A stretch of DNA of 64,000 bases from Elusimicrobiales bacterium (GTDB lineage Bacteria; Elusimicrobiota; Elusimicrobia; Elusimicrobiales; UBA9959): NCBI GenBank assembly GCA_023701245.1, contig JAMPXK010000005.1, positions 385 through 64,384 on the forward strand. Reading direction: 5' to 3'. Made by a program: the position numbers and the translations under genes. Under the pieces are notes generated by a model, which was not told the origin of the DNA, did not search any database, and saw nothing but the letters and a program-made list of their open reading frames with translations. Below are positions 46,356 through 60,275 of this stretch, piece by piece; the stretch's first letter is position 1, and every line of letters begins with the position of its first letter.

Positions 46356-47420
46356 TCAGAGTTTTTTGTCCGAGCGGACGGCCCAGCGCAGTTTGGCGCA
46401 GGCCGAGCGCGGGTTGGAGCGGCGTTCCGCCGGCGTGGGCCTGACGGGCGTGGGCGCCACCTGCGAGTACAGCCCCTCCGCCTCGCCGCGGGCGAAAGCC
46501 TTCTTCACCCTGCGGTCCTCCCCGGAATGGAAAGACAGGATAGCCGCGCGGCCGCCGGGCCGCAGGCACCACGGCAGCGCCTCCAGGAAACGGTCCAGGG
46601 CGCTGAATTCGTCGTTGACCTCTATGCGCAGGGCCATGAAGACCCGCTGCAGGCATTTGCGCACTATCTCCTCGCTCATTTTGGGGTGCAGGGCCTTAAG
46701 CCCGGCGCGCACTATGCCGGCGAGTTCGGCCGTGGTGGCGGGCGGCACGGGCTGGTCCTTGATGGCGGCGGCCACGTCCCGGGAGTGGGTCTCGTCCGCG
46801 TTCTCTTCCAGCAGGGCGGCCAGTTTCTCCCGGGAGACGGTCTTGAGGAATTCCGAGGCGGGCTGGCCCCGGCCCGGGTTCAGGCGCAGGTCCAGGGGGC
46901 CGTCGGCCTTGTAGGTAAAACCGCGCTCCGGGTTGTCCAGCTGCATGGAGGATACGCCCAGGTCCGCCAGGACGCCGTCGAACCCTCCGCCGGCCTCGCC
47001 CAGGAGGCCCAGGATCCCCGCGAAATTCATCTTGCGTATCACCAGCTCGGCCGGGCCGTAGCCCAGCGCCCGCAGGCGGGCCTCGGTCTTGGGCAGCTCG
47101 GTGGCGTCCACGTCCACCGCGAACAGGCGGCCGCCGGGCCTTAGCCGCGGCAGCAGGTTCTGGGCGTGGCCGCCGTAGCCCAGCGTGGCGTCAAAACAGG
47201 TCTCGCCGGGTTTCGGGTCCAGGATGCCCAGGATCTCTTCCACGCAGATGGGGCGGTGGGTGCCGGCCGGGGTCAGGCCCTTGGCCAGGATGTGCTCTAT
47301 CTGGTCCGCGTATTTGGCGGGGTCCAGTTCCTTGTATTTCTGGTCGAAACGGCGCGGGTGCTTGCCGGCGTAGCGGACGCGCCGTTTATGGGGCTGGGGA
47401 GCGGGGGTATCTTCGGTCAT
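46356..47420 (-). CDS. rsmH: RsmH/MraW-family SAM-dependent methyltransferase
   Basis: DATLGYGGH, DLGVSSMQLD, ERGF, FHSGEDRRVKKAF. ATG 47420 preferred. Confidence 0.8.
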   Translation of the reverse strand: MTEDTPAPQPHKRRVRYAGKHPRRFDQKYKELDPAKYADQIEHILAKGLTPAGTHRPICVEEILGILDPKPGETCFDATLGYGGHAQNLLPRLRPGGRLFAVDVDATELPKTEARLRALGYGPAELVIRKMNFAGILGLLGEAGGGFDGVLADLGVSSMQLDNPERGFTYKADGPLDLRLNPGRGQPASEFLKTVSREKLAALLEENADETHSRDVAAAIKDQPVPPATTAELAGIVRAGLKALHPKMSEEIVRKCLQRVFMALRIEVNDEFSALDRFLEALPWCLRPGGRAAILSFHSGEDRRVKKAFARGEAEGLYSQVAPTPVRPTPAERRSNPRSACAKLRWAVRSDKKL

Positions 47421-47478
47421 GGCAAAAAAGGGCTTCCCGGGTATAACGGGAAGCCCTCCTCGCACCGGCAGGGGCCGC

Positions 47479-48743: not shown

Positions 48744-49295
48744 CTAGAATATGAAGACGGCTGCCGCTACGGTGGTGGTCCAGACGCCTTCGGAACCGAT
48801 GGCGCTCTGGGTGATGTTGGAAGCTTTAACGATCTTGCCGCTGAGCTTCCAGATCTCTTCCTTCTGGTCCCAGGTGGTCTCGCTGCCGAATTCCACGCCC
48901 TGGATGGTCGATAACATCATGGCCGCCAGGTCTTCGGCGTAGTCGCCGGTCTTTTCGTCGGTCTCGCCGAAAGTGTGGTGCTCGGAGATGTACCCGTAAT
49001 GGGACTTGTCCTTGGGGACGGCCAGCCCCACGGAAGCCGCTATCAGGCGGTGGTTCTCGTTTATGGTGTTGCGGCTCAGCACGCAGTGCAGGATCTGGCC
49101 GTCGCGCAGCTTTTCCAGGCCTTTCTGCTTGGGGATGACCTTGCAGTAGGGGGGGAAGATGCTGGAGACGTGCACAAGGTTGTACTTGGCTATCTTTGCG
49201 TCCCGGAGGGCCTCCTCGAAGCTCGCCAGCTTTTCCTTGTGGCGGCCGAGGCCTTTGGTCAGAAAGACTTCTTTGGGAACGAGGAGCTGTGACAT
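48744..49295 (-). CDS. pdaD: pyruvoyl-dependent arginine decarboxylase
   Basis: The size (183 aa) and the N-terminal VP..VFLTKG.G and LVHVSSIFPP self-cleavage region match PdaD. Confidence 0.85.
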   Translation of the reverse strand: MSQLLVPKEVFLTKGLGRHKEKLASFEEALRDAKIAKYNLVHVSSIFPPYCKVIPKQKGLEKLRDGQILHCVLSRNTINENHRLIAASVGLAVPKDKSHYGYISEHHTFGETDEKTGDYAEDLAAMMLSTIQGVEFGSETTWDQKEEIWKLSGKIVKASNITQSAIGSEGVWTTTVAAAVFIF

Positions 49296-49380
49296 GACTC
49301 AATTATAATAAATATGGCGGTGGAATAAAAAAATACCGCCGGCGCGGGGGCCGGCGGCACTTTTTCCGGGGGGCCGGGGC

Positions 49381-50529
49381 TTACCTGTTCACGTGGATGA
49401 CCTTCGCCGGCGGGAAGCCGTTGAAGTACGTGGACGAGGCGTGGCTGTAGGCGCCCATGTTGGTGCTGTACATCAGTTCGCCCAGCTGCAGGTCGGTCGG
49501 CAGCGGCATCGCGGTGGAGATCACGTCCAGGGCGTCGCAGGTGGGGCCGAACACGGCGCAGTTCTCGGTCTTCTTGCCTTTGCGGAAGGAGAACATGTTG
49601 CAGTGCTGGTGGTCGAAGATGATGCCCGAGTAGGTGTGGTAGGCGCCGTCGTCCACGTAGTAGCAGGTCTTGCCGTCGCGCACGGTCTTGCCGTTGATGC
49701 GCACCACGGAAGTGCCGGCGGTGGCTATCATGAAGCGGCCGGGCTCGGCCAGGATCTCTATCTTCGGGTCCGGGAAGAGGCGTTCCAGCTCGGCGTTGAT
49801 GATCTTCGCCAGTTCCTGGAAGGGCTTCACGGAGGCGTCGTACGGGGCCGGGAAGCCGCCGCCGATGTCGAGCAGGTTCATCTTGTCGTAGCCGCGTTCC
49901 TTGGCTTCCTTGAAGATGTCGGCGGCCAGGTTGATGGCCTGCACGTAGTTCTCGAAGTTGGTGGTCTGGCTGCCCACGTGGAAGCTCAGGCCCTCTACGC
50001 CGAGGCCCTGCTTTACGGCCTCCAGGATGAGGTCCACGGCTTCGCCGGGGGAGGCGCCGAACTTGGAGGAGAGTTCCACCACCGCGCCGGTATTGGCCAC
50101 CCTGATGCGCAGGCAGAGGCCCGCGTGCGGGGCGTACTTCTTTATCTTGTGAATTTCTTCCAGGTTGTCGAACGTGACGAGCGGCCTGTACTGGTCCAGC
50201 TCCTTAAGGGTCTCGTTCGGCTTTATCGGGTTAGCGTATATGATCTTGTCCCAGATCCAGGCCAGCCGCTTCTTGTTCGGCATGTTCTTGATGTACTCAT
50301 GCACGACCATGAACTCCGGCATGGAGGCCACGTCGAAGCTGGCGCCCGCCTTGTAGAGCGTTTTCACTATCTCCGTCATCGGCTCGCACTTCACCGCGTA
50401 GTAAGCCTGCACGCGCGGCAGGTGCTTCTTGAACGTGGCGTAGTTCTTGCGGATCTCATCGTGGTCCACGATGAATAGGGGGGTACCGTGCTTCTTGGCC
50501 AGGTCCTGCATCTGTTTCTTTGTGATCAT
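49381..50529 (-). CDS. group IV PLP-dependent decarboxylase, ornithine (or lysine/ornithine) decarboxylase-like
   Basis: YAVKCEP (PLP Lys), IGGGFP, GPTCDALD. Confidence 0.8.
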   Translation of the reverse strand: MITKKQMQDLAKKHGTPLFIVDHDEIRKNYATFKKHLPRVQAYYAVKCEPMTEIVKTLYKAGASFDVASMPEFMVVHEYIKNMPNKKRLAWIWDKIIYANPIKPNETLKELDQYRPLVTFDNLEEIHKIKKYAPHAGLCLRIRVANTGAVVELSSKFGASPGEAVDLILEAVKQGLGVEGLSFHVGSQTTNFENYVQAINLAADIFKEAKERGYDKMNLLDIGGGFPAPYDASVKPFQELAKIINAELERLFPDPKIEILAEPGRFMIATAGTSVVRINGKTVRDGKTCYYVDDGAYHTYSGIIFDHQHCNMFSFRKGKKTENCAVFGPTCDALDVISTAMPLPTDLQLGELMYSTNMGAYSHASSTYFNGFPPAKVIHVNR

Positions 50530-50619
50530 ACTTTTGTCTCGTCTTCCTCCGTTTCCGATTATGATTTTACTTCAGAACTTAAGAGCGGGCCCGGCATTTC
50601 CGCCGGGCCCGCTGGCGCC

Positions 50620-52077
50620 TTAGTCGCCGTCCGTGATCAGGAAGTTCTTGAACTGCCAGGGGTCCTTCTTGTCCACGTACGGGTTGTTGAAGCCCTTGAA
50701 GGCGTTGGTGTAATGCTTCAGGGGGGTCCAGTCGGACTTGGCCGAGTGCAGCTTGCCCAGCCAGGGCTTGGCGATCTTGAGCACGTAGTCGTGCGGCAGG
50801 TCGTCGGGCACGCAGACGCCCTCTTCCTGGTTGTCCATCATCCACATCGCGGCCGACAGCACGCCTATGGCCACCTGGATGGTGGTGGCGTTCTGGTGGG
50901 GGATAAGCTTGCGGCTCTCGTGGATGTCCAGGATGGTGCCGGTCCACCAGGCGTTGTAGTCGTGGCCCATCAGCAGGGCGCCCAAGGTGTCGTAACCGCT
51001 TATGATCTCGTCTCCGAGGATGCGCACTTTCTTCTGCAGCTTGTAGTCGTAGCCGCGCAGCTCGTTGAGCGAGGCGATGGCGGAATCCGACGGGCAGTAC
51101 GCGTAGTGCACGGTGGGGCGGTACACGGCCTTGCCGTTCTTCCATACGGTCAGCTTGTCCGACAGCGTGAAGGCCTCGCCGTGGCGCACCAGCATGCCGT
51201 GGATGCAGTAGTTGGGCACCCAGGTGGAGATCCAGGTGTTCATGCCCATGCGGGCGATGCAGATCTGGTTCTTGGGGCCGCTCTTGTGCTCGCAGGCGAA
51301 CGGGGGGAGGGTCTTCTCGTGCGTGCCCCAGCCCAGTTCGGCCGGCGCCACGCCTTCTTCGCGGAAACCTTCCACGCTCCAGGTGTTGACGAACTCGTTG
51401 ACCTGCTTGGGCTTGTTGGTGAGCTGGGTGTCGCGCTCGCTGACGTGGATGACCTTAACGCCGAGCTCCTTGGCGAGCACGTTGAAAGTGCGGTCGTTAA
51501 CCAGCTGGCGCAGCTTCTCCGCCCTGGCGCCCTTCGCTTTCTTGTCGGCGATAAGGCTGTTGGCGATGTCGATAAGGCCTTTCTTGGCGAAGTGGGAGAT
51601 CAGGCCCGGGTTGGCGCCGTGCTCGATGACGGCGGTGGGGCCGGGGGTCTTCCACTTGGCTATCATCTTGCGCATGGCCATGTGGCGCACGTAGAGGGTG
51701 CGTTCGGTGGGGTGCTTCTTCTCGGCGTCCTTGTAGGGGTCCCACAGCTCGGTGGAGGTGTTGATGTAGAGCACGCCGCGGTCGTGGCACCACTGCAGGA
51801 TCTCGCAGGCGTCTATGTTCCAGGCGAGGTCTATGAGCATGTCGCCGGGCTTGAGGTACTTGCCGAGCAGGGAGCTCATGTTGCTCTTGGTGACCTGCGC
51901 GCGCACGTATTTCACGCCCTTGGCCAGCATGGGCTTGAGCGCTTCGCGCTTGTCCTCGAAATCCATCACCGTGATGTTCTTCGCGGGGACCTTGATAAGT
52001 TTGAACAGCATCGGCAGGGCGCACTGCGCCACGGAACCGTAGCCCACGAAAAGTATCTTGTTCTTGAATTCTTTCAT
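50620..52077 (-). CDS. hss: homospermidine synthase (saccharopine dehydrogenase-like)
   Basis: ILFVGYGSVAQ Rossmann and DLAWNIDACEILQWCHDRGVLYINTSTELWDPY. The ~485-aa length matches bacterial HSS as I recall it. Confidence 0.75.
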   Translation of the reverse strand: MKEFKNKILFVGYGSVAQCALPMLFKLIKVPAKNITVMDFEDKREALKPMLAKGVKYVRAQVTKSNMSSLLGKYLKPGDMLIDLAWNIDACEILQWCHDRGVLYINTSTELWDPYKDAEKKHPTERTLYVRHMAMRKMIAKWKTPGPTAVIEHGANPGLISHFAKKGLIDIANSLIADKKAKGARAEKLRQLVNDRTFNVLAKELGVKVIHVSERDTQLTNKPKQVNEFVNTWSVEGFREEGVAPAELGWGTHEKTLPPFACEHKSGPKNQICIARMGMNTWISTWVPNYCIHGMLVRHGEAFTLSDKLTVWKNGKAVYRPTVHYAYCPSDSAIASLNELRGYDYKLQKKVRILGDEIISGYDTLGALLMGHDYNAWWTGTILDIHESRKLIPHQNATTIQVAIGVLSAAMWMMDNQEEGVCVPDDLPHDYVLKIAKPWLGKLHSAKSDWTPLKHYTNAFKGFNNPYVDKKDPWQFKNFLITDGD

Positions 52078-52168
52078 TTTAATTTTCACCGCCTTGTTGT
52101 AATAACTTCGCCTTCCCGCGCCCGAATTTCTTTCGCGCGGGAGATAAATTATATACAAATATTTTCGG

Positions 52169-52205
52169 AAAATAAAAAAGCACGACGAGAAAATTTACGT
52201 CGCGC
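52169..52205 (-). terminator. intrinsic terminator of the coiled-coil operon
   Basis: On the minus strand, GCGCGACG-taaattttct-CGTCGTGC followed by TTTTTTATTTT. Confidence 0.7.
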
Positions 52206-52249
52206 TTTCGGGCGGCTTCGCGGGGCCGCCTGGCGGGGGGACGGGGGCG

Positions 52250-55153
52250 CTATTTGCCCAGGTCCTTGAGCTTGTCCTGGTAGTCTTTTTCCAGGCGCTC
52301 CCTGGCTTCTTTGAAGCGGCGGGCCAGGTCCGTTTCGCGGGCCGCGTAGCTTTCCTGCAGCGCGGCCTCGCGCTTCTGCAGGTCGCCCACCAGCCGCTGC
52401 TCCTGCTCCAGCAGGCCCTTGAGCTTGGCGCGCTCGCCTTCCAGCTGGGCGGCGCGCATGCGCTGGGAATCTTCCAGGTCCTTGCGGCGCGCTTCGAATT
52501 CCGCCCGGAGCTTGTCTTCCAGTTCCTGCAGGCGGGTGTCGTAAGAGGTTATGGCCTGGTTCAGCTGGGCGTTCTTGCGCTCCAGTTCTTCCTTGAGGCG
52601 GTTCACGTTGTCGGCGAGGGCGCGGTCGGTGTCCACGTTGGCGGACTTATCCGCCAGCATGGCCTGGTAGCTGCTCTCCAGCTGGGCCTGCCTGGCCTCC
52701 AGGGACTTCTCCTTCACCTTCAGCGCGTCGGTCATGGCGGCGGTCACGTTGCGTTCCCGTTCCATGTAGGCGGCTTCCATGTCCTTGGCCTGCGCGGCCA
52801 GGCGCGCGTCGAAATCGTCCTTCATGAACTGGAGTTTGCGGAAATAGTCTTCCTGGTCCGCCTTGCGCGCCTCGTCGCCGCGCTTGGAGAGTTCCTTTAT
52901 CTGGCCCAGGTAGTTCTGCTCTATGTCCTTGAGCTTGTCCAGGAATTCCTTTTCCAGCGTCTGGCGCAGGTCGCGAGACTTGGTGAGGTTCTCCTGTATG
53001 AGTTTCTGGCGCTCGCGCTCGCTCTCTTCCAGGCGGTGGGTGAGGGATTCCAGCTGGCCGCGGGCGGCGGAGAGTTCTCCGGAGGCGGAGCCGGCTTCGG
53101 CGGTGGCCTTGGCCAGGCCTTCCTCCAGGGCCTTCACCCTGGAGCTGATGTCGCGTTCCTTCAGCTGGAAGGTTTCCTGCAGGTGGCGGGCGGCGGTAAC
53201 GGCAGCGTCGTCGGCGGCCTGGCGCAGGTCCTTTTCGCGGTGCTCGTAGAAAACTTTCAGTTCGGCCTCGCGGCGGGCGGCCTTTTCCTTCTCCTCGGCG
53301 CGCGCCTTGGCTTCGGCCTGGGCGGCTTCGGCGGCCAGGGCGTCGCGTTCCTCCTCCCAGGACCGGCGGGCGGCCGCGGCCTGGGCTTTAAGGATCTCGG
53401 CGTTGCGTTTGAAATTTTCGGTTACCTCGGCCTCGCGGGCCCGCAGGTTCTCCATGAAGCCGGCTTCCACCTCTACGGCGCGCCGGTTGAGCGCCTCGCG
53501 CTCCTTTTCCAGCGCCTCTTCCTTTATCCTGAGCTGGGCGGTAAGGCGGGCGCTTTCCACCTGCAGGCGCTCGGCGTAGGAAGCCTTGGCCTCCTCCTCG
53601 CGCTGCTGGGCTTCGGCCTTGAGGCGTTCGGCCCTGGCGCGGAACTCGGCTTCCAGTTTTTCGCGCTCGGCGTCTATGCGCGCCCGCTCGGATTCCAGCA
53701 GGCCGTGGGCCTGCGAGTCGCGGGCCAGCAGGGCGTCCTTTATGCGGGTGTTCTCCTCCTGCAGGGCGTTGGCGCGCGCCGTGGCGGCGTCCTTCTGCGC
53801 GTTCAGGGCGGATAACTGCAGTTCCATGTCCTCGTATTTCTTGGCGAGGGTTATTTCCTTGATCTTGTAGGATTCTTCCAGGGACTGGCGCAGCAGGGAG
53901 ACGCGGTCGTCGAAAGTCCTTTCCAGTTCCTGCTGCTTCTGTTCCAGCAGGGAGCTGATCTGGCGGCGCATGTCGCCTATCTCGCGGCGCTCCGCGGCGG
54001 TGCGGGCCTCGCGCTCTTCCAGGGCGCTCTGGCGCCTTTCGGACTCCGCCGCGAAATCCGCCAGGCTGGCCGCAAAGCGCTGCTCCAGGGCCTTCTCCTT
54101 CTTAAGGAGGGAATCCTTGCCGCGGGCGGCCTCTTCGCGCAGTTCGCGCGCCATCTGGTCGTGCCTCTCCGCCAGTTCCTTCTCGCGGACCAGGTGCTGG
54201 GCGTGCAGTTCCCGCGAAGCCGCTTCCAGGGAAACTTCCTTCTGCCGGTAAAAATCTTTCAGCTCGGAGTATTTCTCCTCCCAGCTCTTCTCGCGGAGGT
54301 CCAGTTCCTCGCGGGCCTTGGCCAGGGAATCCTCCAGGCGCTGGGTGCGGTCGCGGAACTCGGTCTCCGCCGCTTCCAGCCTGCGGGCGGCTTTCTCCTC
54401 CAGCAGCTTCTTGTTCTCCTCCAGCCAGGAGGTATAGTGGGCGTAAAGGTCCTGCTCGCGCTTGGTGAACTCCGCGTTGAGGCGGTCGTTGAGGGCCTTT
54501 ATCTCCTCCACGCGCTCGCGGCGCATCTGGCTGCGGATCTCTTCGGTGGCCAGGGCCTCGCGGCTCTTGTAGTCCGCTTCCTGCTGACTGAGTTTCTGGC
54601 GCCAGAGCTCTTCCATCTGGCGGGCGCGTTCCAGGGCCTCTTTCTGGGCCGTGGCGCGGCCCAGCTTCAGTTCTTCTATGAAAGTTTCCCGTTCCGTCTT
54701 GAAATCGGCTTCGCGCTCCTCTTCCCATTTGCGGAAGAGGGCTTCCATCTCCACGCGCAGGTTCTTTTTCTGGGCGGCGAGTTCCGTCTCTTTCTTCTCT
54801 ATGTCGGCCTTCAGGAGGGCCCGCTCGGCCTCGAACTCGGCGCGCTGGCGGTTTACGGCGTCGTCGAGCATGGCCTGGTACTTCTGCCAGAGGGCGGATT
54901 CTTTCTCCACCAGCAGGCGGGCCAGGTCCTGCTCGCGCTTGGCTATGCGCTCTTCCTGGGCGCGCATCAGGGCTTCGAACTCGGCCTCTTTGGCCTTGTT
55001 GTTGCGCTGCACCTCGTCGAAGCTGCGCGACCGCGTGGAAGCCACCTCCAGCTCCTTCTCCCGGAGCTCGGAGGTAAGGCGCAGGATCATCTTGGCCGAA
55101 TCCAGTTCGGTCTCCTTAAGGATGTCCTCGTAGTCGTGACCCGCGCCGGGCAT
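52250..55153 (-). CDS. giant coiled-coil protein (967 aa)
   Basis: Continuous E/R/K/A/L/Q-rich sequence with no enzymatic motifs, TM segments or signal peptide. Confidence 0.8.
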   Translation of the reverse strand: MPGAGHDYEDILKETELDSAKMILRLTSELREKELEVASTRSRSFDEVQRNNKAKEAEFEALMRAQEERIAKREQDLARLLVEKESALWQKYQAMLDDAVNRQRAEFEAERALLKADIEKKETELAAQKKNLRVEMEALFRKWEEEREADFKTERETFIEELKLGRATAQKEALERARQMEELWRQKLSQQEADYKSREALATEEIRSQMRRERVEEIKALNDRLNAEFTKREQDLYAHYTSWLEENKKLLEEKAARRLEAAETEFRDRTQRLEDSLAKAREELDLREKSWEEKYSELKDFYRQKEVSLEAASRELHAQHLVREKELAERHDQMARELREEAARGKDSLLKKEKALEQRFAASLADFAAESERRQSALEEREARTAAERREIGDMRRQISSLLEQKQQELERTFDDRVSLLRQSLEESYKIKEITLAKKYEDMELQLSALNAQKDAATARANALQEENTRIKDALLARDSQAHGLLESERARIDAEREKLEAEFRARAERLKAEAQQREEEAKASYAERLQVESARLTAQLRIKEEALEKEREALNRRAVEVEAGFMENLRAREAEVTENFKRNAEILKAQAAAARRSWEEERDALAAEAAQAEAKARAEEKEKAARREAELKVFYEHREKDLRQAADDAAVTAARHLQETFQLKERDISSRVKALEEGLAKATAEAGSASGELSAARGQLESLTHRLEESERERQKLIQENLTKSRDLRQTLEKEFLDKLKDIEQNYLGQIKELSKRGDEARKADQEDYFRKLQFMKDDFDARLAAQAKDMEAAYMERERNVTAAMTDALKVKEKSLEARQAQLESSYQAMLADKSANVDTDRALADNVNRLKEELERKNAQLNQAITSYDTRLQELEDKLRAEFEARRKDLEDSQRMRAAQLEGERAKLKGLLEQEQRLVGDLQKREAALQESYAARETDLARRFKEARERLEKDYQDKLKDLGK

Positions 55154-55155
55154 GA

Positions 55156-58100
55156 TCAGTCTCCGCCGCCTTTGCCGTCCCTGCGGGCGGCCAGGCGGTT
55201 CTTTTCCTCTTCCAGTTCGCGGAACTTGGCGGCCAGGCCGGCCTCCAGTTCCGCGCGCAATTTGTCCAGCGAAGCCCGGCTGCGTTCCAGCTCCGCGTAG
55301 TAATTCTTCTCCAGCTCGTCCTTGCGCGCGGAGAATTCCTCTTCGCGGCGCAGGCGGTCGGCCCGGTTCTTGGCCAGTTCCTCGTCGAATTTCTGGTTGA
55401 GCAGGTTTTCCTTCTTCTCGAAGTCGGCCCTGAGGGCCTGGCGTTCGGCGTTGAGGAGTTCCAGCTTGCGGGCTTCCCAGACCGTGCGTTCGGCCTGGAA
55501 CTGCGCCTGCAGCTTGTCGGCCAGTTCCGCGTACTTGCGGTCCAGGTCCTTGTCGCGGCGGGCCATGGCGTTCTCCAGCTCCTGCCGGCGCTTCTCCAGG
55601 GACTTGTCTGCGGCGGCTATGGCGGCCTTTTCCCGGGCCATGAATTCGGCTTCCAGGCGGGCCTGCCGGTCGGAGACCGAGGCGGAAAGCGCCTGCTCGC
55701 GGCCCTTTATCCGGGTCTCCAGGGCGGCCTTGCGCCCCTCGTACTCCAGTTCCAGTTTCTCGGCCTCGTCCTGGAGGCGCTGCTTGAGCGCCGTTTCGGC
55801 GGCCTTGAATTTCTCGTCGAACTTGGTCTGCAGGTCCAGTTCTTTTTCGCGCAGGCCGGAGAGGCGCTGGTCGTACTCGCGGTCCAGCACTTCGCGGTGG
55901 GCGTTGAGGGCCTTGTACATCTCCTCTTTGGCCGCGGCCAGTTTCCCGAAAAGTTCGTGTTCCTTGGCCTGGGTCTCGCGGTGGAGTTTCAGCTTGGTCT
56001 CGTTGTGGTGCTGCTCCAGGGTGCTGCGGTGGCGGTCCAGGTCGGCCTCGCGCTCCTGCAGGCGGAGGTCCTTTTCGCGGGCGGCGGCCTCGGCCTTGTT
56101 CTTCTCCTGCGCCAGGCGTTCCTCGGCCGCGATCTCGGCGGCGCGCAGTTTTTCCGCGTGGGCGGTCTCGCGGGCGTGCATCTCTTCCACCAGGCGCAGG
56201 CGTTCGCGCTCGGCCTCGGCGGCGCGGTCGGAATGCTCCGCGGCCAGGGCGGCGCGTTCGGCGGCCAGGCGTTCCTCGTAGATCTTCTCGGCCTGCAGCA
56301 GGCGCTCTTTCTGCGCCGCCTTCAGGTCTTCTTCGCGCTTCAGGAATTTCTTCTCTATCTCCCTGGCGGCGGCGTCGGCGTCGGCCCTGAACCCGGCTAC
56401 CTTGCCTTCAAGTTCGCGCTGGGCCGCGGCGGCCTGTTCGCGCAGGCGGGTCTTTTCCAGTTCCAGGTCCTTTTTGAGTTCGGCGGCCTTGGCGGAGACG
56501 TCCGCCCTGGCGGCGGCTTCCACCTCGGATTCCTTCTGCGCGAATTTCAGCTTCAGTTCGTCCTCGAAGTGGGAGAACTTCTTGTGCAGCAGGGCGCGGT
56601 GGTGTTCGAATTCCTTTTTGAGGTTTTCCTTCTCCTCGTGGAGGGCGGCCTCTTTTTCCAGGCGCCATTCGTCCTCGCGGGCCAGCCATTCCGCCTTGAG
56701 CTTGCGCTGGACCGAGCCTATGCGCGTTTCCAGCGCCTTTTCCTTCATGGTGTAGGCTTCTTCCAGGCCGGCCCGGAGGCTTTCCAGGCGCTCGGTATGG
56801 CTGGCTTCCAGCGCCTTGCGGGCCTCTTCGGCCGCGGCCTGCTGGTTGAGGGTCCACCGGTTCTGTTCCTGCAGCATGGAGGCGCGGAGGTCTTCCTCCC
56901 GGGCGCGCGCCTCGGTTTCCACCTTCTCGCGGAAAGCTTTGAATTCGGCCTCTTTGGCGGCCAGCAGCGCTTCTTCGCGGCGCTTGAATTCGGCCTCCAT
57001 GCGGGCGGCGGCTTTCAGGGCGGCGTCGTCGGCCTGGGCCCGGCTCTCTATGGCGGCCTTTTCCCACTGGCGGCGGGACTCTTCCATGGCCTTCTCGTAG
57101 CGGGCGCGGGTCTCTTCCTCCCGCTTTTTGACCAGCTCCACCAGCTGGGCTTCCATCTCGAGGCGCAGGTCCACGTATTCCTGCTCGCGCTTCTGCACGT
57201 AGACCTTCATGCGCTCGCGCAGGGTTTCCAGTTCCTTTTCGGCGGCGGTCTTGTGGGCCGCCAGTTCGGCGCGGCGGTCCTCTTCCGCACGGAGGATCCT
57301 GGCGTCGAATTCTTTCTGCAGTTCGGCCCGGAGGGCGTCGGCGGAGGCCTTGACCTCCTCCATGCGGGCGGCGGCCGCGGCTTCGGCCTGGGCCTGGCGG
57401 GCGGCGTGCGCCTCTTCCAGTTCCCGGCGGCGCAGTTCCAGGGCTTCGGCGGCGGCGGCCTTGGCGGCCTCCACCTTCTCAAAACGTTCGTCTTCCAGCT
57501 GCTGGCGGAACTTGTCCAGCTGGGCCTCTTTCTGCTCCTGCAGCTTGGCCAGTTCGGCCACCTTCACTTCGTAGCGCTCGCGCAGGGCCAGCTCCTCCTG
57601 CTCGGCGCGCAGGCGGGAGGTGGAGATCAGTTCGTGCTCCAGGCGCTCGTACTTTTCGCGCAGGGCGGTCTCGCGGGCGGCCAGGTTGTCCTGGTGCTTG
57701 GTGAGGAGGGTGGTGAGTTCCGCTTCCTTTACCTCGGAAGCCTTCTTCAGTTCGTCTATCAGGGAGAGCTTGAGGCGGCCTATCTCGTTCTCGCGGGCGG
57801 CCAGTTCGTTCTTGAGGGCCACCACTTCTTTTTCCAGCTGGGAGCGGGAGGCGCGCCAGTTGGCGGCTTCTTCGTTGAGGATCTGTTCGCGCAGCTTGGC
57901 CTTGAGGTCCGCCTCCATGGCGGTCTGGGTCTTCCAGTTCTCTTCCCAGGTCTTGATGGTGCCCTGCCACTTCTTGAGGATCTCGGTCTTCTGCTCCACC
58001 TGCTCGGTCAGGGAGCGGTTGATGCTGGTCTTGGTGCGGTTATCTTCGCGCAGGCGGCCGGTCTCTTCCTGCAGGCCGTGGATCTTTTCCACGGCCCAGC

Positions 58101-58167
58101 GAAGGGCCAGGCGGGCGGTTTCCACGTCCGTGATCGTGGAAGGGTCTAGTTTAGGGTCCTGCTCCAT
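55156..58167 (-). CDS. giant coiled-coil protein (1003 aa)
   Basis: Same composition as the gene above. GGAGG RBS. Its stop lies 2 nt before the next gene's ATG. Confidence 0.8.
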   Translation of the reverse strand: MEQDPKLDPSTITDVETARLALRWAVEKIHGLQEETGRLREDNRTKTSINRSLTEQVEQKTEILKKWQGTIKTWEENWKTQTAMEADLKAKLREQILNEEAANWRASRSQLEKEVVALKNELAARENEIGRLKLSLIDELKKASEVKEAELTTLLTKHQDNLAARETALREKYERLEHELISTSRLRAEQEELALRERYEVKVAELAKLQEQKEAQLDKFRQQLEDERFEKVEAAKAAAAEALELRRRELEEAHAARQAQAEAAAAARMEEVKASADALRAELQKEFDARILRAEEDRRAELAAHKTAAEKELETLRERMKVYVQKREQEYVDLRLEMEAQLVELVKKREEETRARYEKAMEESRRQWEKAAIESRAQADDAALKAAARMEAEFKRREEALLAAKEAEFKAFREKVETEARAREEDLRASMLQEQNRWTLNQQAAAEEARKALEASHTERLESLRAGLEEAYTMKEKALETRIGSVQRKLKAEWLAREDEWRLEKEAALHEEKENLKKEFEHHRALLHKKFSHFEDELKLKFAQKESEVEAAARADVSAKAAELKKDLELEKTRLREQAAAAQRELEGKVAGFRADADAAAREIEKKFLKREEDLKAAQKERLLQAEKIYEERLAAERAALAAEHSDRAAEAERERLRLVEEMHARETAHAEKLRAAEIAAEERLAQEKNKAEAAAREKDLRLQEREADLDRHRSTLEQHHNETKLKLHRETQAKEHELFGKLAAAKEEMYKALNAHREVLDREYDQRLSGLREKELDLQTKFDEKFKAAETALKQRLQDEAEKLELEYEGRKAALETRIKGREQALSASVSDRQARLEAEFMAREKAAIAAADKSLEKRRQELENAMARRDKDLDRKYAELADKLQAQFQAERTVWEARKLELLNAERQALRADFEKKENLLNQKFDEELAKNRADRLRREEEFSARKDELEKNYYAELERSRASLDKLRAELEAGLAAKFRELEEEKNRLAARRDGKGGGD

Positions 58168-58249
58168 TATAAGGCCTCCGGCGAAAGTCCCGAAAAACGA
58201 AAAAGATAAGGATTAGATGATCCTTTCCGAATACGCGCTGATATCATGG

Positions 58250-58257
58250 AAATTATA
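58250..58257 (-). promoter_or_regulatory. extended -10 TGTATAAT for the coiled-coil operon
   Basis: Read on the minus strand, ~80 nt upstream of ATG 58167. Confidence 0.45.
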
Positions 58258-58382
58258 CAAAAGGCTTGTTTACAAAATATTAAATTCTTATTGCCGGGGT
58301 GCGGCGCCGCTGGCGGGATACAAATAAGTGCGGCCGCCCTGCCTGGGCGGCCTTGCCGAAACGTGGAAAGTCCCCTGTGGGG

Positions 58383-58577
58383 TTATTTCGCGGGGCGGAC
58401 AGCTTTGCCGCTCTTTATGCAGACGGTGCAGACGTAAACGGACTGCGTCTTGCCGTTCAGCGCGACTTTCTGTTTCTGGAGGTTAGGCTTGAAGGTACGT
58501 TTGGTAGCCCTGTTGGAATGGCTGTAGGAGTTACCGGAAACGGGCTTCTTGCCGCAGAGTTCGCATTTGTAAGACAT
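58383..58577 (-). CDS. rpmB: 50S ribosomal protein L28 (zinc-ribbon type)
   Basis: [34 protein letters not shown] is collinear with L28, with CxxC...CxxC. Confidence 0.9.
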
Positions 58578-58656
58578 GGTATTATTATACCAAATCGAGC
58601 CGTCCCGAGAAAGTTTGTAGAATATCCGTGGGCCGCGCTGGCCCGCTTGCGGGGGG

Positions 58657-59082
58657 ATGAACCATATGAAATCGCATACCGCCTACCTGACCCTGACCAC
58701 GCCCGAACGCTGCGCCATAGTGAACATCACCGGCCGCGTGGAAGCGGAACTGGCCCGCAGCGGCATAAAAGAGGGCCTCTGCCTGGTGAATTCCATGCAT
58801 ATCACCTCCAGCGTTTTCATAAACGACGACGAAAAGGGGCTGCACCGGGATTTTCTGAAGTGGACGGAGCGGCTGGCGCCCTACGCGCCCGAAAGCTACG
58901 ACCACAACCTGACCGGCGAGGACAACGGCGACGCCCACCTTAAACGCACCCTCATGGGCCGGGAGGTGGTGGTGGCCGTGACCAGGGGGGCGCTGGATTT
59001 CGGGCCGTGGGAGCGGATCTTCTACGGCGAGTTCGACGGGCGGCGCGCCAAGCGCCTGCTGATCAAGATAATAGGCGAGTGA
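58657..59082 (+). CDS. YjbQ/UPF0047 family protein (secondary thiamine-phosphate synthase-like)
   Basis: [15 protein letters not shown]...NGDAHLK...[13 protein letters not shown]. Confidence 0.85.
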
Positions 59083-59084
59083 AG

Positions 59085-60275
59085 ATGAAGAAGAACCTGT
59101 TTTTTGCCGCGCTTTTTTTAGCCTGGGGCTGCGCCGGAGGCGCGCGCCGGGGCGATGTCGCGGCCGGGCCTGAAAGCATCCCTTACGCGGGACCGGCGGA
59201 GCCGCCGGCGCCCGAGCCAGCCCCGGTGGAGGCGCTGGCCGCGCCCGCCCCGGAGCACGCGCCCGACGCCAGCTTTCCCGGCAGCTGGAAGTACCGGGAG
59301 AACCTGCGGGTGGCCGAACGCAGCGGCGCGGCCCTGGCGGACTACCAGGTGCTGGTCAAACTGGATACGGCGGCCCCCGTCCGCCTGGGGCGCCTGAAGC
59401 CGGACTGCTCCGACCTGCGGTTCGCCAATTCCAACGAGGTTTCCCTGCTTAACTACTGGCTGGAAAGCGGCTGCAACACGGCCGAGACGCGGGTTTGGGT
59501 GCGCCTGCCCTTCCTGGCCAAAAATTCGGTAAAGAATATTTACGCCTACTACGGCAACAGGGCCGCCCGGTCGGAGTCCAGCGGGGAGAACACCTTCGTC
59601 TTTTTCGACGATTTCGAAGGGCAGGGGCCAGACGCGCGCAAATGGCGCTTTCTGCGCGGCGACTGCCCGGTGGCCCAGTCAGGGGGGCGCCTGAAGTTCA
59701 CCGGCTGCGGAAGCGGCACCTACACGCAGAAAGCCGCCCTGGCCAGCGTGCCTGATTTCCGGCCACCCTACGTGCTGGAGTTCGACGGCTGGTCTTCCGA
59801 TTCCGGCGAGAACGGGATGTACCGGGAAATAGACCTGCGCTGGGACGGGGAGCTGGTTGGCCCCTACCGCCAGGCCAACAGCGCCGTCGGGGTCCTGCTC
59901 TACGACGGCTATTCCATAGCGCCCGGCTGCCTCACGGACGAGTGCATAGCGGGGCAGGCTACCATCAACCCCTGGCAGAACGGGACCATAGACCTGAGCA
60001 CCCGCTCCCCGGGGCGCCCGCTTACCTCCGGGGTCTGGCGCCGCTACCGGGTAACCGACGACGGCGAGCTGGTGACCGTCTATGCCGGGGACAAAGCGCT
60101 GCTGTCGGCCAGGGTGGCCGGGCCTTTGGGCCAGAAACTGGGGCTGTCGGCCAGGGAATACCCCAGCGGCGGCGAGGTTCACTACGACAATTTCAGGGTC
60201 AGGCGGTTCGCGCCGGCGGAGCCCGAGGTTTACCCGTACGAAAAGGGCAACGCCAGGGGCCGCGCGGCGCGCTGA
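59085..60275 (+). CDS. DUF2341-type lipoprotein (ConA-like lectin/glucanase fold)
   Basis: Lipobox FLAWGC. DYQVLVKLD...DLRF......L.YWLES.......VWVRLP......IYAYYGN. Confidence 0.7.
   Translation: MKKNLFFAALFLAWGCAGGARRGDVAAGPESIPYAGPAEPPAPEPAPVEALAAPAPEHAPDASFPGSWKYRENLRVAERSGAALADYQVLVKLDTAAPVRLGRLKPDCSDLRFANSNEVSLLNYWLESGCNTAETRVWVRLPFLAKNSVKNIYAYYGNRAARSESSGENTFVFFDDFEGQGPDARKWRFLRGDCPVAQSGGRLKFTGCGSGTYTQKAALASVPDFRPPYVLEFDGWSSDSGENGMYREIDLRWDGELVGPYRQANSAVGVLLYDGYSIAPGCLTDECIAGQATINPWQNGTIDLSTRSPGRPLTSGVWRRYRVTDDGELVTVYAGDKALLSARVAGPLGQKLGLSAREYPSGGEVHYDNFRVRRFAPAEPEVYPYEKGNARGRAAR

Follow-up and report, generated by a model that had tools for sequence, protein, structure and literature searches.

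The 64,000-nucleotide stretch analyzed here (the window; positions 385 to 64,384 of contig JAMPXK010000005.1 from the Elusimicrobiales bacterium assembly GCA_023701245.1) carries two adjacent genes, referred to as A and B, for very long coiled-coil proteins. Positions below are those of the window, and features lie on its minus strand unless stated otherwise. Gene A (55156..58167) encodes 1003 amino acids (aa) that comprise an N-terminal head and a rod of hendecad (11-residue) periodicity, and gene B (52250..55153) encodes 967 aa that probably represent a headless paralog of the A rod. The stop codon of A and the start codon of B are separated by 2 nt in the junction TGAtcATG (55151..55158), and the 3′ end of A contains a GGAG. 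The original prediction from this stretch had described the two genes as an operon for an uncharacterized cytoskeletal or scaffold pair; the coordinates that it gave for the open reading frames (ORFs) and for their junction are exactly correct, and A and B together account for 9.2% of the window, as against its estimate of about 9%. We tentatively read A and B as lineage-specific rods that may form a cytoplasmic filament or lattice scaffold, a reading that we consider plausible but somewhat short of probable.

The composition of both proteins is extreme, with E, A, L, R, and K making up about 65–70% of residues. Leu accounts for about 12% and charged residues for about 44% of the rods, Pro is found only at positions 5 and 9 in A and position 2 in B, and Cys is missing from both. 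Size and coiled-coil content, along with weak matches to Rad50 coiled coils (E 0.1–1.6), are all that would speak for an SMC/Rad50/MukB-like or other nucleic-acid-organizing coiled coil, an explanation to which we give almost no chance. The Walker A motif is absent, in agreement with the earlier reading ([AG]xxxxGK[ST] is not found in A or B), neither profile searches nor AlphaFold2 (AF2) models contain an ATPase head, a hinge, or a globular domain, and the net charges of −21 (A) and −26 (B) are unfavorable for DNA binding. With head and hinge domains absent, identity with SMC, Rad50, MukB, or RecN is effectively refuted. The highest 19-residue hydropathy values (0.21 in A and 0.26 in B) fall far under the transmembrane level, as expected from the earlier statement that neither protein has a transmembrane or signal-like segment. 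The accompanying suggestion of an envelope scaffold is unsupported, since no signal peptide, transmembrane segment, or lipobox is present. A recurrent F-x-x-R motif, said to occur dozens of times, is indeed enriched, but its copy number had been overstated and is about 7 in the strict form and about 20 in the loose form. The strict form, [ED]F..[RK]...L, is found three times in A and four times in B where 0.1 would be expected (z 8–12), and the loose form has 11 and 9 copies, respectively (z 2.7–4.1). On the plus strand, the AT skew runs from −0.36 to −0.48 over positions 52000–58000, across both genes. The GAR/AAR/GCN-rich coding strand of A and B also gives rise to spurious antisense ORFs of up to 750 aa, which makes the locus a trap for gene callers.

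Database searches returned 14 close homologs and one distant homolog for A and 50 homologs for B, all named "hypothetical protein" and all from Elusimicrobia. A scan of species-representative genomes located 57 loci, every one of them in metagenome-assembled genomes labeled Elusimicrobia, Elusimicrobiales, or "Elusimicrobiaceae". Because full-length homologs exist in 57 species-level loci, A and B are real genes and not chance ORFs; homologs outside this genome, whose absence had been named as a sign of a low-complexity artifact, are abundant and syntenic. The order rpmB→A→B on one strand is kept at every locus with sufficient upstream DNA, rpmB (ribosomal protein L28, 64 aa) lying at 58386..58577 in the window as the universally conserved neighbor upstream of A. 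Linkage to rpmB and to a gene called hss had both been proposed for checking; the first is universal, whereas the "hss"/polyamine linkage is confined to closer relatives and is inverted or absent in distant ones. In most of about 50 species, the gap between the A stop and the B start measures 1–30 nt (e.g., TGAtATG). The closest relative is Elusimicrobia bacterium GWA2_62_23 (L001), to which A and B are 82–84% identical as compared with 97–98% for rpmB, the dehydrogenase, and the decarboxylase of the neighborhood. A and B thus evolve much faster than these neighbors, and the divergence falls mostly in the middle of the rods.

Searches of Pfam, NCBIfam, PADLOC, and PHROGs with both full proteins gave nothing meaningful, and profile searches of the PDB with A, B, and alignments of the head gave weak coiled-coil and apolipoprotein noise only. 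Foldseek returned 0 matches in the PDB for the A model, whose predicted template modeling score (pTM) of 0.26 makes the fold search uninformative. The description of the pair as uncharacterized agrees with these results, as no domain or ATPase emerged from profile searches or AF2, and full-text literature searches revealed no description of such proteins in Elusimicrobia. None of the matches bore the names Elusimicrobium minutum or Endomicrobium, although no search was aimed at those cultured species. From these sequence comparisons, A and B appear to be restricted to Elusimicrobiota and to fall outside every described family.

Upstream of A, a GC-rich, terminator-like hairpin with 8 GC pairs, called by a terminator scan (58332..58352), separates rpmB from the A-B pair. 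It is followed by a promoter-like block, AAGAATTTAATATTT..TAAACA.GCCTTTTGTATAATTT (58250..58289), with TATAAT at 58257-58252. The extended −10 element proposed here, TGTATAAT, is borne out insofar as its TATAAT lies within a conserved block, but its TG (58259-58258) abuts TATAAT directly (58259-58252) rather than forming the canonical TGnTATAAT. A sigma-70 consensus scan made no call for this TG-TATAAT box upstream of A. Among the orthologs, a TATAAT-like box is present at −40 to −120 of A in 44 of 52 species, and an AT-rich block of about 40 nt ending in TTGTATAAT is near-identical even where A itself is only about 45% identical. The leader contains a hairpin read from the sequence, AAGGAT-catcta-ATCCTT (58208..58225). 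Leader hairpins recur in most orthologous A leaders (L001–L057), where the stem sequence varies and pairing is kept (AAGGAT/ATCCTT, AAGGGA/TCCCTT, GGGGCC/GGCCCC); an Rfam search of 52000–58700 matched no family. The predicted ribosome-binding site is also found, with the Shine-Dalgarno sequence GGAGG (58175..58179, within a conserved CCGGAGG) placed 8 nt ahead of the A ATG and a Shine-Dalgarno sequence in 52/52 upstream regions. The intrinsic terminator claimed after B is visible by eye as the hairpin GCGCGACG-(10 nt)-CGTCGTGC followed by TTTTTTATTTT (52171..52205), but it was missed by the scan because its loop of 10 nt exceeds 8 nt. A and B most likely form a separate transcription unit that is conserved and translationally coupled. 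A sequence similar to the A promoter block, TTTGTATATAAT, stands ahead of the next gene at about 52148-52159.

The rods themselves were analyzed by Fourier transformation of hydrophobicity in single sequences and family profiles. The dominant period is 3.68 residues in A and 3.63/3.67 in B, with a normalized power of 23–27 where about 1 is expected. The proteins had been described as heptad-like throughout, which does not hold: the hydrophobic period is 3.63–3.70 (11/3) over nearly the whole length, and power at 3.5 is limited to A residues 1–60 (period 3.50–3.53). The A and B rods are therefore of the hendecad type, a class that specifies almost no supercoiling (PMC9858780). No long super-repeat (e.g., of 51 residues) emerged, as the spectrum between 6 and 130 residues is flat with a maximum power of 4.5. 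The A rod (55180..57828) spans residues 114–996 as a predicted Pro-free helix with a seam period of about 3.68 and a variable middle and C-terminus. In the AF2 monomer models, both proteins are entirely helical and lack globular domains, with helices 15–237, 251–375, 380–640, and 648–996 in A and 9–197, 216–710, and 715–964 in B. The breaks between these helices are probably fold-back artifacts of the models, because pTM is only 0.24–0.26. Computed for full extension, each rod would measure about 142–146 nm.

The distribution of residue classes around the local hydrophobic moment was determined for the window proteins and for 17–18 diverse orthologs of each, with the same pattern throughout. 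At the seam center, 60% of residues are large hydrophobics. The flank at −40° is basic and acid-depleted, and the flank at +40 to 80° is acidic. Ala makes up 22–29% of the far face and 7–10% of positions near the seam. Because the seam flanks carry opposite charge and would attract each other in a parallel arrangement but repel each other in an antiparallel one, this pattern favors parallel two-stranded pairing. It also bears on the idea that A and B, instead of pairing with each other, cover a lipid or membrane surface with amphipathic 11-mer helices of the apolipoprotein or perilipin kind. The 11-residue periodicity, the basic residues at one polar/nonpolar boundary, and the identity of the best solved-structure matches, weak as they are (ApoA-I, E 0.005–0.06; A-IV, E 0.67), would all suit such a coat. 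The hydrophobic face, however, is narrow (±40–60°, 22% large hydrophobics) in comparison with the approximately 180° of class-A helices, and its oppositely charged flanks are those of parallel coiled coils. The 11/22-mers are not punctuated by Pro, which occurs only at the extreme N-termini, specific termini are strongly conserved, and the PDB matches fall under any reliable threshold. A lipid coat is consequently improbable in our estimation.

Evidence for a packed seam comes from the insertions and deletions (indels) accepted during evolution. Indels of at least 7 aa, collected from 53 A sequences and 50 B sequences, have lengths of 7, 11, 15, 18, 22, 26, 29, 33, 40, 47, 54, 58, 62, 69, and 80 residues; those in A lie in the variable middle and C-terminus of the rod. 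Counting as integer any length within 0.2 of a whole turn, 29/33 are whole-turn indels if a turn has 3.64 residues (p=1.7e-8) and 12/33 if it has 3.5, the latter being the level of chance. Since indels are quantized in whole turns, selection keeps the phase of a straight seam, which favors packing of helix on helix. The same quantization speaks against the possibility that each protein is an ER/K-type single alpha-helix (SAH), a stiff spacer that stays monomeric. That possibility draws on the charged-residue content of about 44% and on the enrichment of oppositely charged i→i+4 pairs (z 3.3–5.1; about z 3–5). Set against it are a hydrophobic seam conserved over the full length and 60% hydrophobic at its center, a seam phase kept by indels that a SAH would not require, and a Leu content of about 12%, so that we regard monomeric spacers as very improbable.

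Conservation is concentrated at the ends of the proteins. It reaches 0.84–0.92 in A residues 1–100, 0.73–0.85 in B residues 1–250, and about 0.8 in B residues 700–750 and 900–967, and it is lowest, at 0.5–0.6, in the middle of the rods. The conserved N-terminal end of B (residues 1–250; 54404..55153) includes a degenerate head-like sequence, E-L-D-S-A-K-M-I-L-R-L, and its conserved C-terminal end (residues 700–967, 0.66–0.81 as compared with 0.50–0.58 in the middle of the rod; 52253..53056) carries LEQEQRLVxDLQKREAALQESY...LEKDYQ. In most species, B is length-locked at 965–971 aa, and this holds to identities as low as about 45%. The length of A, by comparison, ranges from 746 to 1123 aa across species.

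The relationship between the two proteins is faint at the level of single sequences, with a BLASTP match of E 3e-4. Profile-profile comparison (hhalign) aligns A 114–1003 with B 24–967 over 807 collinear columns with a score of 128 and a probability of 98.7% (matching segments include ERLESLRAGLEEAYTMKEKALETR in A and DRVSLLRQSLEESYKIKEITLAKK in B). Unfortunately, that probability is insufficient by itself to establish paralogy, given that reversed alignments score 66–68 (E ~1e-6). Paralogy was retained since the true score lies above those of all 24 phase-preserving block shuffles (mean 65.6, sd 11.1, max 89), about 5.6 sd over this null. By profile similarity, A and B are probably tandem collinear paralogs, with A bearing an extra head of about 110 aa. 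Pairing between them was assessed on the premise that the strands of a two-stranded coil must share local pitch. The local-pitch profiles of A and B show no correlation (r −0.02 to −0.23) when homologous positions are compared, which speaks against the in-register heterodimer that the predicted heteromeric filament might have implied, and the best offset (288, r 0.52) does not rise above the noise expected of autocorrelated profiles. The pitch of A is uniform at 3.63–3.72, and that of B becomes heptad-like around residues 381, 461, 701, and 861–901. Co-assembling homodimeric rods are at least as likely as an A/B heterodimer.

The head of A (residues 1–113; 57829..58167) is the most conserved part of either protein. 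It consists of a short N-terminal segment, a heptad coil at residues ~15–60, and a Trp-rich motif at residues 64–81, and it contains the invariant D14-x-E-T-A-R-L-A-L-R-W24 followed by KKWQxTIKTWEENWKTQ (residues 64–81). Within the window, the head motif occurs in A only, apart from the degenerate form in B. A head-profile hidden Markov model search of 1.84 billion representative proteins gave 101 matches at E≤1e-3, of which 28 were at E≤1e-30, and every member bearing a taxon name belongs to Elusimicrobiota. Among the top matches, those that are long and apparently complete have the head starting at residue 1–8 of a protein of 636–1347 aa. The head-bearing proteins form several subfamilies, all Pro-poor and with non-heptad periods of 3.56–3.68. 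The distant genes are not located beside rpmB, and three of their loci (L058, L059, and L060) have no shared neighbors and fragmentary gene calls. At L059 (8001-10215), a 387-aa product is followed after 10 nt by another ORF, and the locus translation does not match the query. At L060 (6800-10651), a 150-aa product precedes an 854-aa ORF with an antisense call between them. Frameshifts or erroneous gene calls in long coiled-coil genes of repetitive sequence probably account for the splits at L059 and L060.

The same head is found in giant proteins from outside the window, for which the sources give no taxon name: P0175 (4482 aa), P0166 (3956 aa), P0180 (3751 aa), and P0158 (1725 aa). Their version of the motif, D-L-E-T-A-R-L-A-L-R-G-A-L-Q-S-V-R-x-L-Q-D-L-N, is followed by thousands of Pro-poor helical residues with a period of 3.56 (~25/7). 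In P0175 and P0158, about 4300 and 1600 helical residues, respectively, lead to a histidine-kinase domain (HATPase_c, E ~1e-20) at the C-terminus, and these two would be soluble kinases on coiled-coil stalks of roughly 0.25–0.65 µm. The head is thus a portable N-terminal module, and, being portable, it fits a role in nucleation, anchoring, or sensing better than that of a plain piece of rod.

These findings bring forward the main rival to a filament or lattice scaffold, namely that A and B are non-polymerizing tethers or rulers in which discrete dimers of about 140 nm bridge two sites, the head binding a target and the rod setting the distance. The placement of a portable head at residue 1–8 of rods of several periodicities, and its linkage to HATPase_c in P0175 and P0158, suggest that the head is an end for targeting or sensing and not a motif for polymerization. 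The invariant length of B suits a ruler, and the distant relatives are single genes. Against this, B is headless and yet conserved at both ends, the length of the A rod is not conserved, and the outer Ala stripe hints at additional helix-helix interfaces. A tether or ruler is a genuine possibility, albeit an unlikely one.

For the scaffold, we can outline a mechanism of assembly. Each protein would be essentially a single continuous, Pro-free alpha-helix of about 950–980 residues, and two chains would pair along the narrow, nearly straight seam into a near-unsupercoiled, probably parallel two-stranded coil of about 140 nm. Because they share their own conserved promoter and are translationally coupled, A and B would be made together at approximately 1:1. 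The conserved rod ends, including the A head, may supply end-to-end contacts and/or anchoring, and the stripe of Ala on the outer face may permit lateral packing. The product would be a nucleotide-independent cytoplasmic filament or lattice that serves as a scaffold or ruler and functionally resembles Scy/FilP. The original proposal of an uncharacterized coiled-coil scaffold stands as a candidate and is strengthened by the coupling, the length-locked B, the conserved termini, and the turn-quantized indels.

Several points weigh against the scaffold. The dimerization, polymerization, and localization of A and B, like dimer orientation, A-B co-assembly, and cellular role, are deduced from sequence. 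Much of the profile-profile similarity among rods of this kind is generic. A full-length, in-register A/B heterodimer is unlikely because local pitch is mismatched and because A is variable in length and B is fixed, and a stoichiometric relation between the two could reflect co-assembly of homodimers or mere co-regulation. The seam is relatively sparse, and with its i→i+4 salt bridges parts of the rods could exist as single alpha-helices. The distant head-bearing homologs are single genes without an evident B-like partner. Furthermore, the neighboring genes (rpmB, the polyamine module, and the UPF0047 and thioesterase genes) offer no functional hint, and linkage to dcw or mreB is absent.

Coiled-coil cytoskeletal proteins are known from few model lineages and include crescentin, Scy/FilP, Ccrp, and the cyanobacterial coiled-coil-rich proteins (CCRPs). 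Those that are hendecad-based are, to our knowledge, essentially limited to Actinobacteria. The genes for Scy and FilP are adjacent, and this system is the closest in design to A and B. In Streptomyces, the two proteins are paralogous and interacting, and each joins a DivIVA-like domain to a hendecad rod (PMC9858780, PMC6599971). The DivIVA-like domain is defined by an N-terminal RGYDxxEVD that is followed by a heptad dimerization coil (PMC9858780), and FilP forms parallel dimers that join end to end (PMC6599971). A shares with them the order of short N-terminal motif, heptad coil (A residues ~1–60), and very long hendecad rod, the high Ala content, and the lack of a nucleotide-binding domain, and in both A and B the non-heptad rod extends over about 900 residues. 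Size is similar as well, with about 1300 aa in Scy and about 1000 aa in A and B. The motif, however, is different: the head here has D-x-E-T-A-R-L-A-L-R-W and a Trp-rich segment, with no sequence homology. Ala lies opposite the seam and not in an Ala-rich core, A and B have no regular 51-residue super-repeat, and the host phylum is the diderm Elusimicrobiota as opposed to Actinobacteria. Membership in the DivIVA/Scy/FilP group was rejected, with GY[DN]xx[QE]V[DN] in 0/52 A and 0/51 B orthologs. In addition, DivIVA (PF05103) gave no Pfam match at E≤10 in 16 heads, none of the DivIVA structures 2WUJ, 4UG3, and 6LFA appeared at E≤10 in the PDB profile search, and hhalign of the A head with the B. 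subtilis DivIVA gave a probability of 0.2%. Scy/FilP is therefore an analogous system and not a homologous one.

Other filament systems resemble A and B in fewer respects. Criteria for intermediate filament (IF)-like proteins comprise a parallel coiled-coil dimer as the building block, nonpolar octameric filaments, and nucleotide-free polymerization that depends on pH and salt, and crescentin makes its longitudinal filament contacts through short terminal stretches (PMC10873595). A and B are comparable in having long helical rods that would probably form parallel dimers, conserved rod ends, a conserved rod length in B, and no cofactor domains. They differ in that their rods are about threefold longer (~890–950 versus ~300–450 aa) and hendecad-based in place of heptad-with-stutter, and that no nonhelical head or tail is present, the helix reaching within 3–15 residues of both termini. 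Pfam Filament (PF00038) did not match A or B, for which filament formation is a prediction. A second comparison is with Anabaena LfiA/LfiB and Helicobacter Ccrp58/59, which are likewise pairs of coiled-coil-rich proteins without other domains encoded by two neighboring genes. These pairs form heteropolymers and provide a precedent for assembly that needs co-expression; they are much shorter and heptad-based. Their sequences are unrelated to those of A and B, which differ further in being collinear paralogs with coupling conserved across about 50 species. LfiA and LfiB have been described as filament-forming CCRPs (10.1101/674176). The sole recurrent Pfam signal of the head was ZapB (PF06005), at A residues 25–72 with 24 bits and E 5.6e-5 and with 6/16 heads giving sub-threshold matches. 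ZapB membership was rejected, as 24 bits is below the gathering cutoff of 31.5 and no ZapB structure was returned by the PDB profile search. Both are short heptad coils, but ZapB is a stand-alone protein of about 80 aa, and the match probably reflects generic heptad similarity.

A broader hypothesis, speculative and rather doubtful, is that Elusimicrobiota possess a cytoskeleton or scaffold of their own made from straight hendecad rods, in which the phylum-specific "ETARLALRW" head nucleates or anchors, A and B form the core, stoichiometric filament pair, and the head is shared by single-gene rods and giant kinases. Were this true, the 1,725–4,482-aa kinases would have stalks (~0.25–0.65 µm) about as long as a small bacterial cell, and a shared docking site would provide a new coupling of cell geometry or mechanics to signaling. 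The family would also be independently evolved and restricted to a poorly studied, mostly uncultured diderm phylum. The signatures of structural constraint are unusually clean, combining turn-quantized indels, a length-locked partner, and conserved ends with a portable head on giant kinases. As two soluble proteins, A and B are a tractable target for studying the assembly of straight two-stranded rods in vitro, and the family provides natural variation for working out the design rules of hendecads as well as a handle on cell organization in Elusimicrobiota. If the proteins are mere spacers, the value would be a modest one of family annotation.

The genes around the pair were also inspected. 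On one side, A and B are flanked by UPF0047, DUF2341, 4HBT thioesterase, GT2, and PMT_2 genes and on the other by genes for a saccharopine-dehydrogenase-family enzyme, an enzyme of Orn/DAP-decarboxylase fold, and a pyruvoyl arginine decarboxylase. The last three lie at 48744-52158, where the gene originally labeled hss encodes the saccharopine-dehydrogenase-family protein and is followed by the Orn/DAP-decarboxylase-fold and pyruvoyl-dependent arginine decarboxylase genes. Together they resemble a carboxy(nor)spermidine dehydrogenase/decarboxylase-type polyamine module, and the first may not be a homospermidine synthase at all. A solitary RsmH/MraW methyltransferase gene is found at 46356-47465; beyond it are a 3-hydroxyacyl-CoA dehydrogenase, unknowns, an XerC/D-type integrase, and RecA. 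A cell-division context was considered and rejected, as no dcw (ftsL-ftsI-mur) cluster follows rsmH and glycosyltransferases are among the neighbors. The DUF2341-domain gene (59007-60275, plus strand) sits between the UPF0047 and thioesterase genes and is present in only four related loci besides (L007, L018, L024, and L046). It appears to be a variable insertion into a divergent gene pair that is otherwise conserved. With the GTG at 59007 as its start, as listed, the gene would share 76 nt with the end of the UPF0047 gene, and the real start is probably further downstream.

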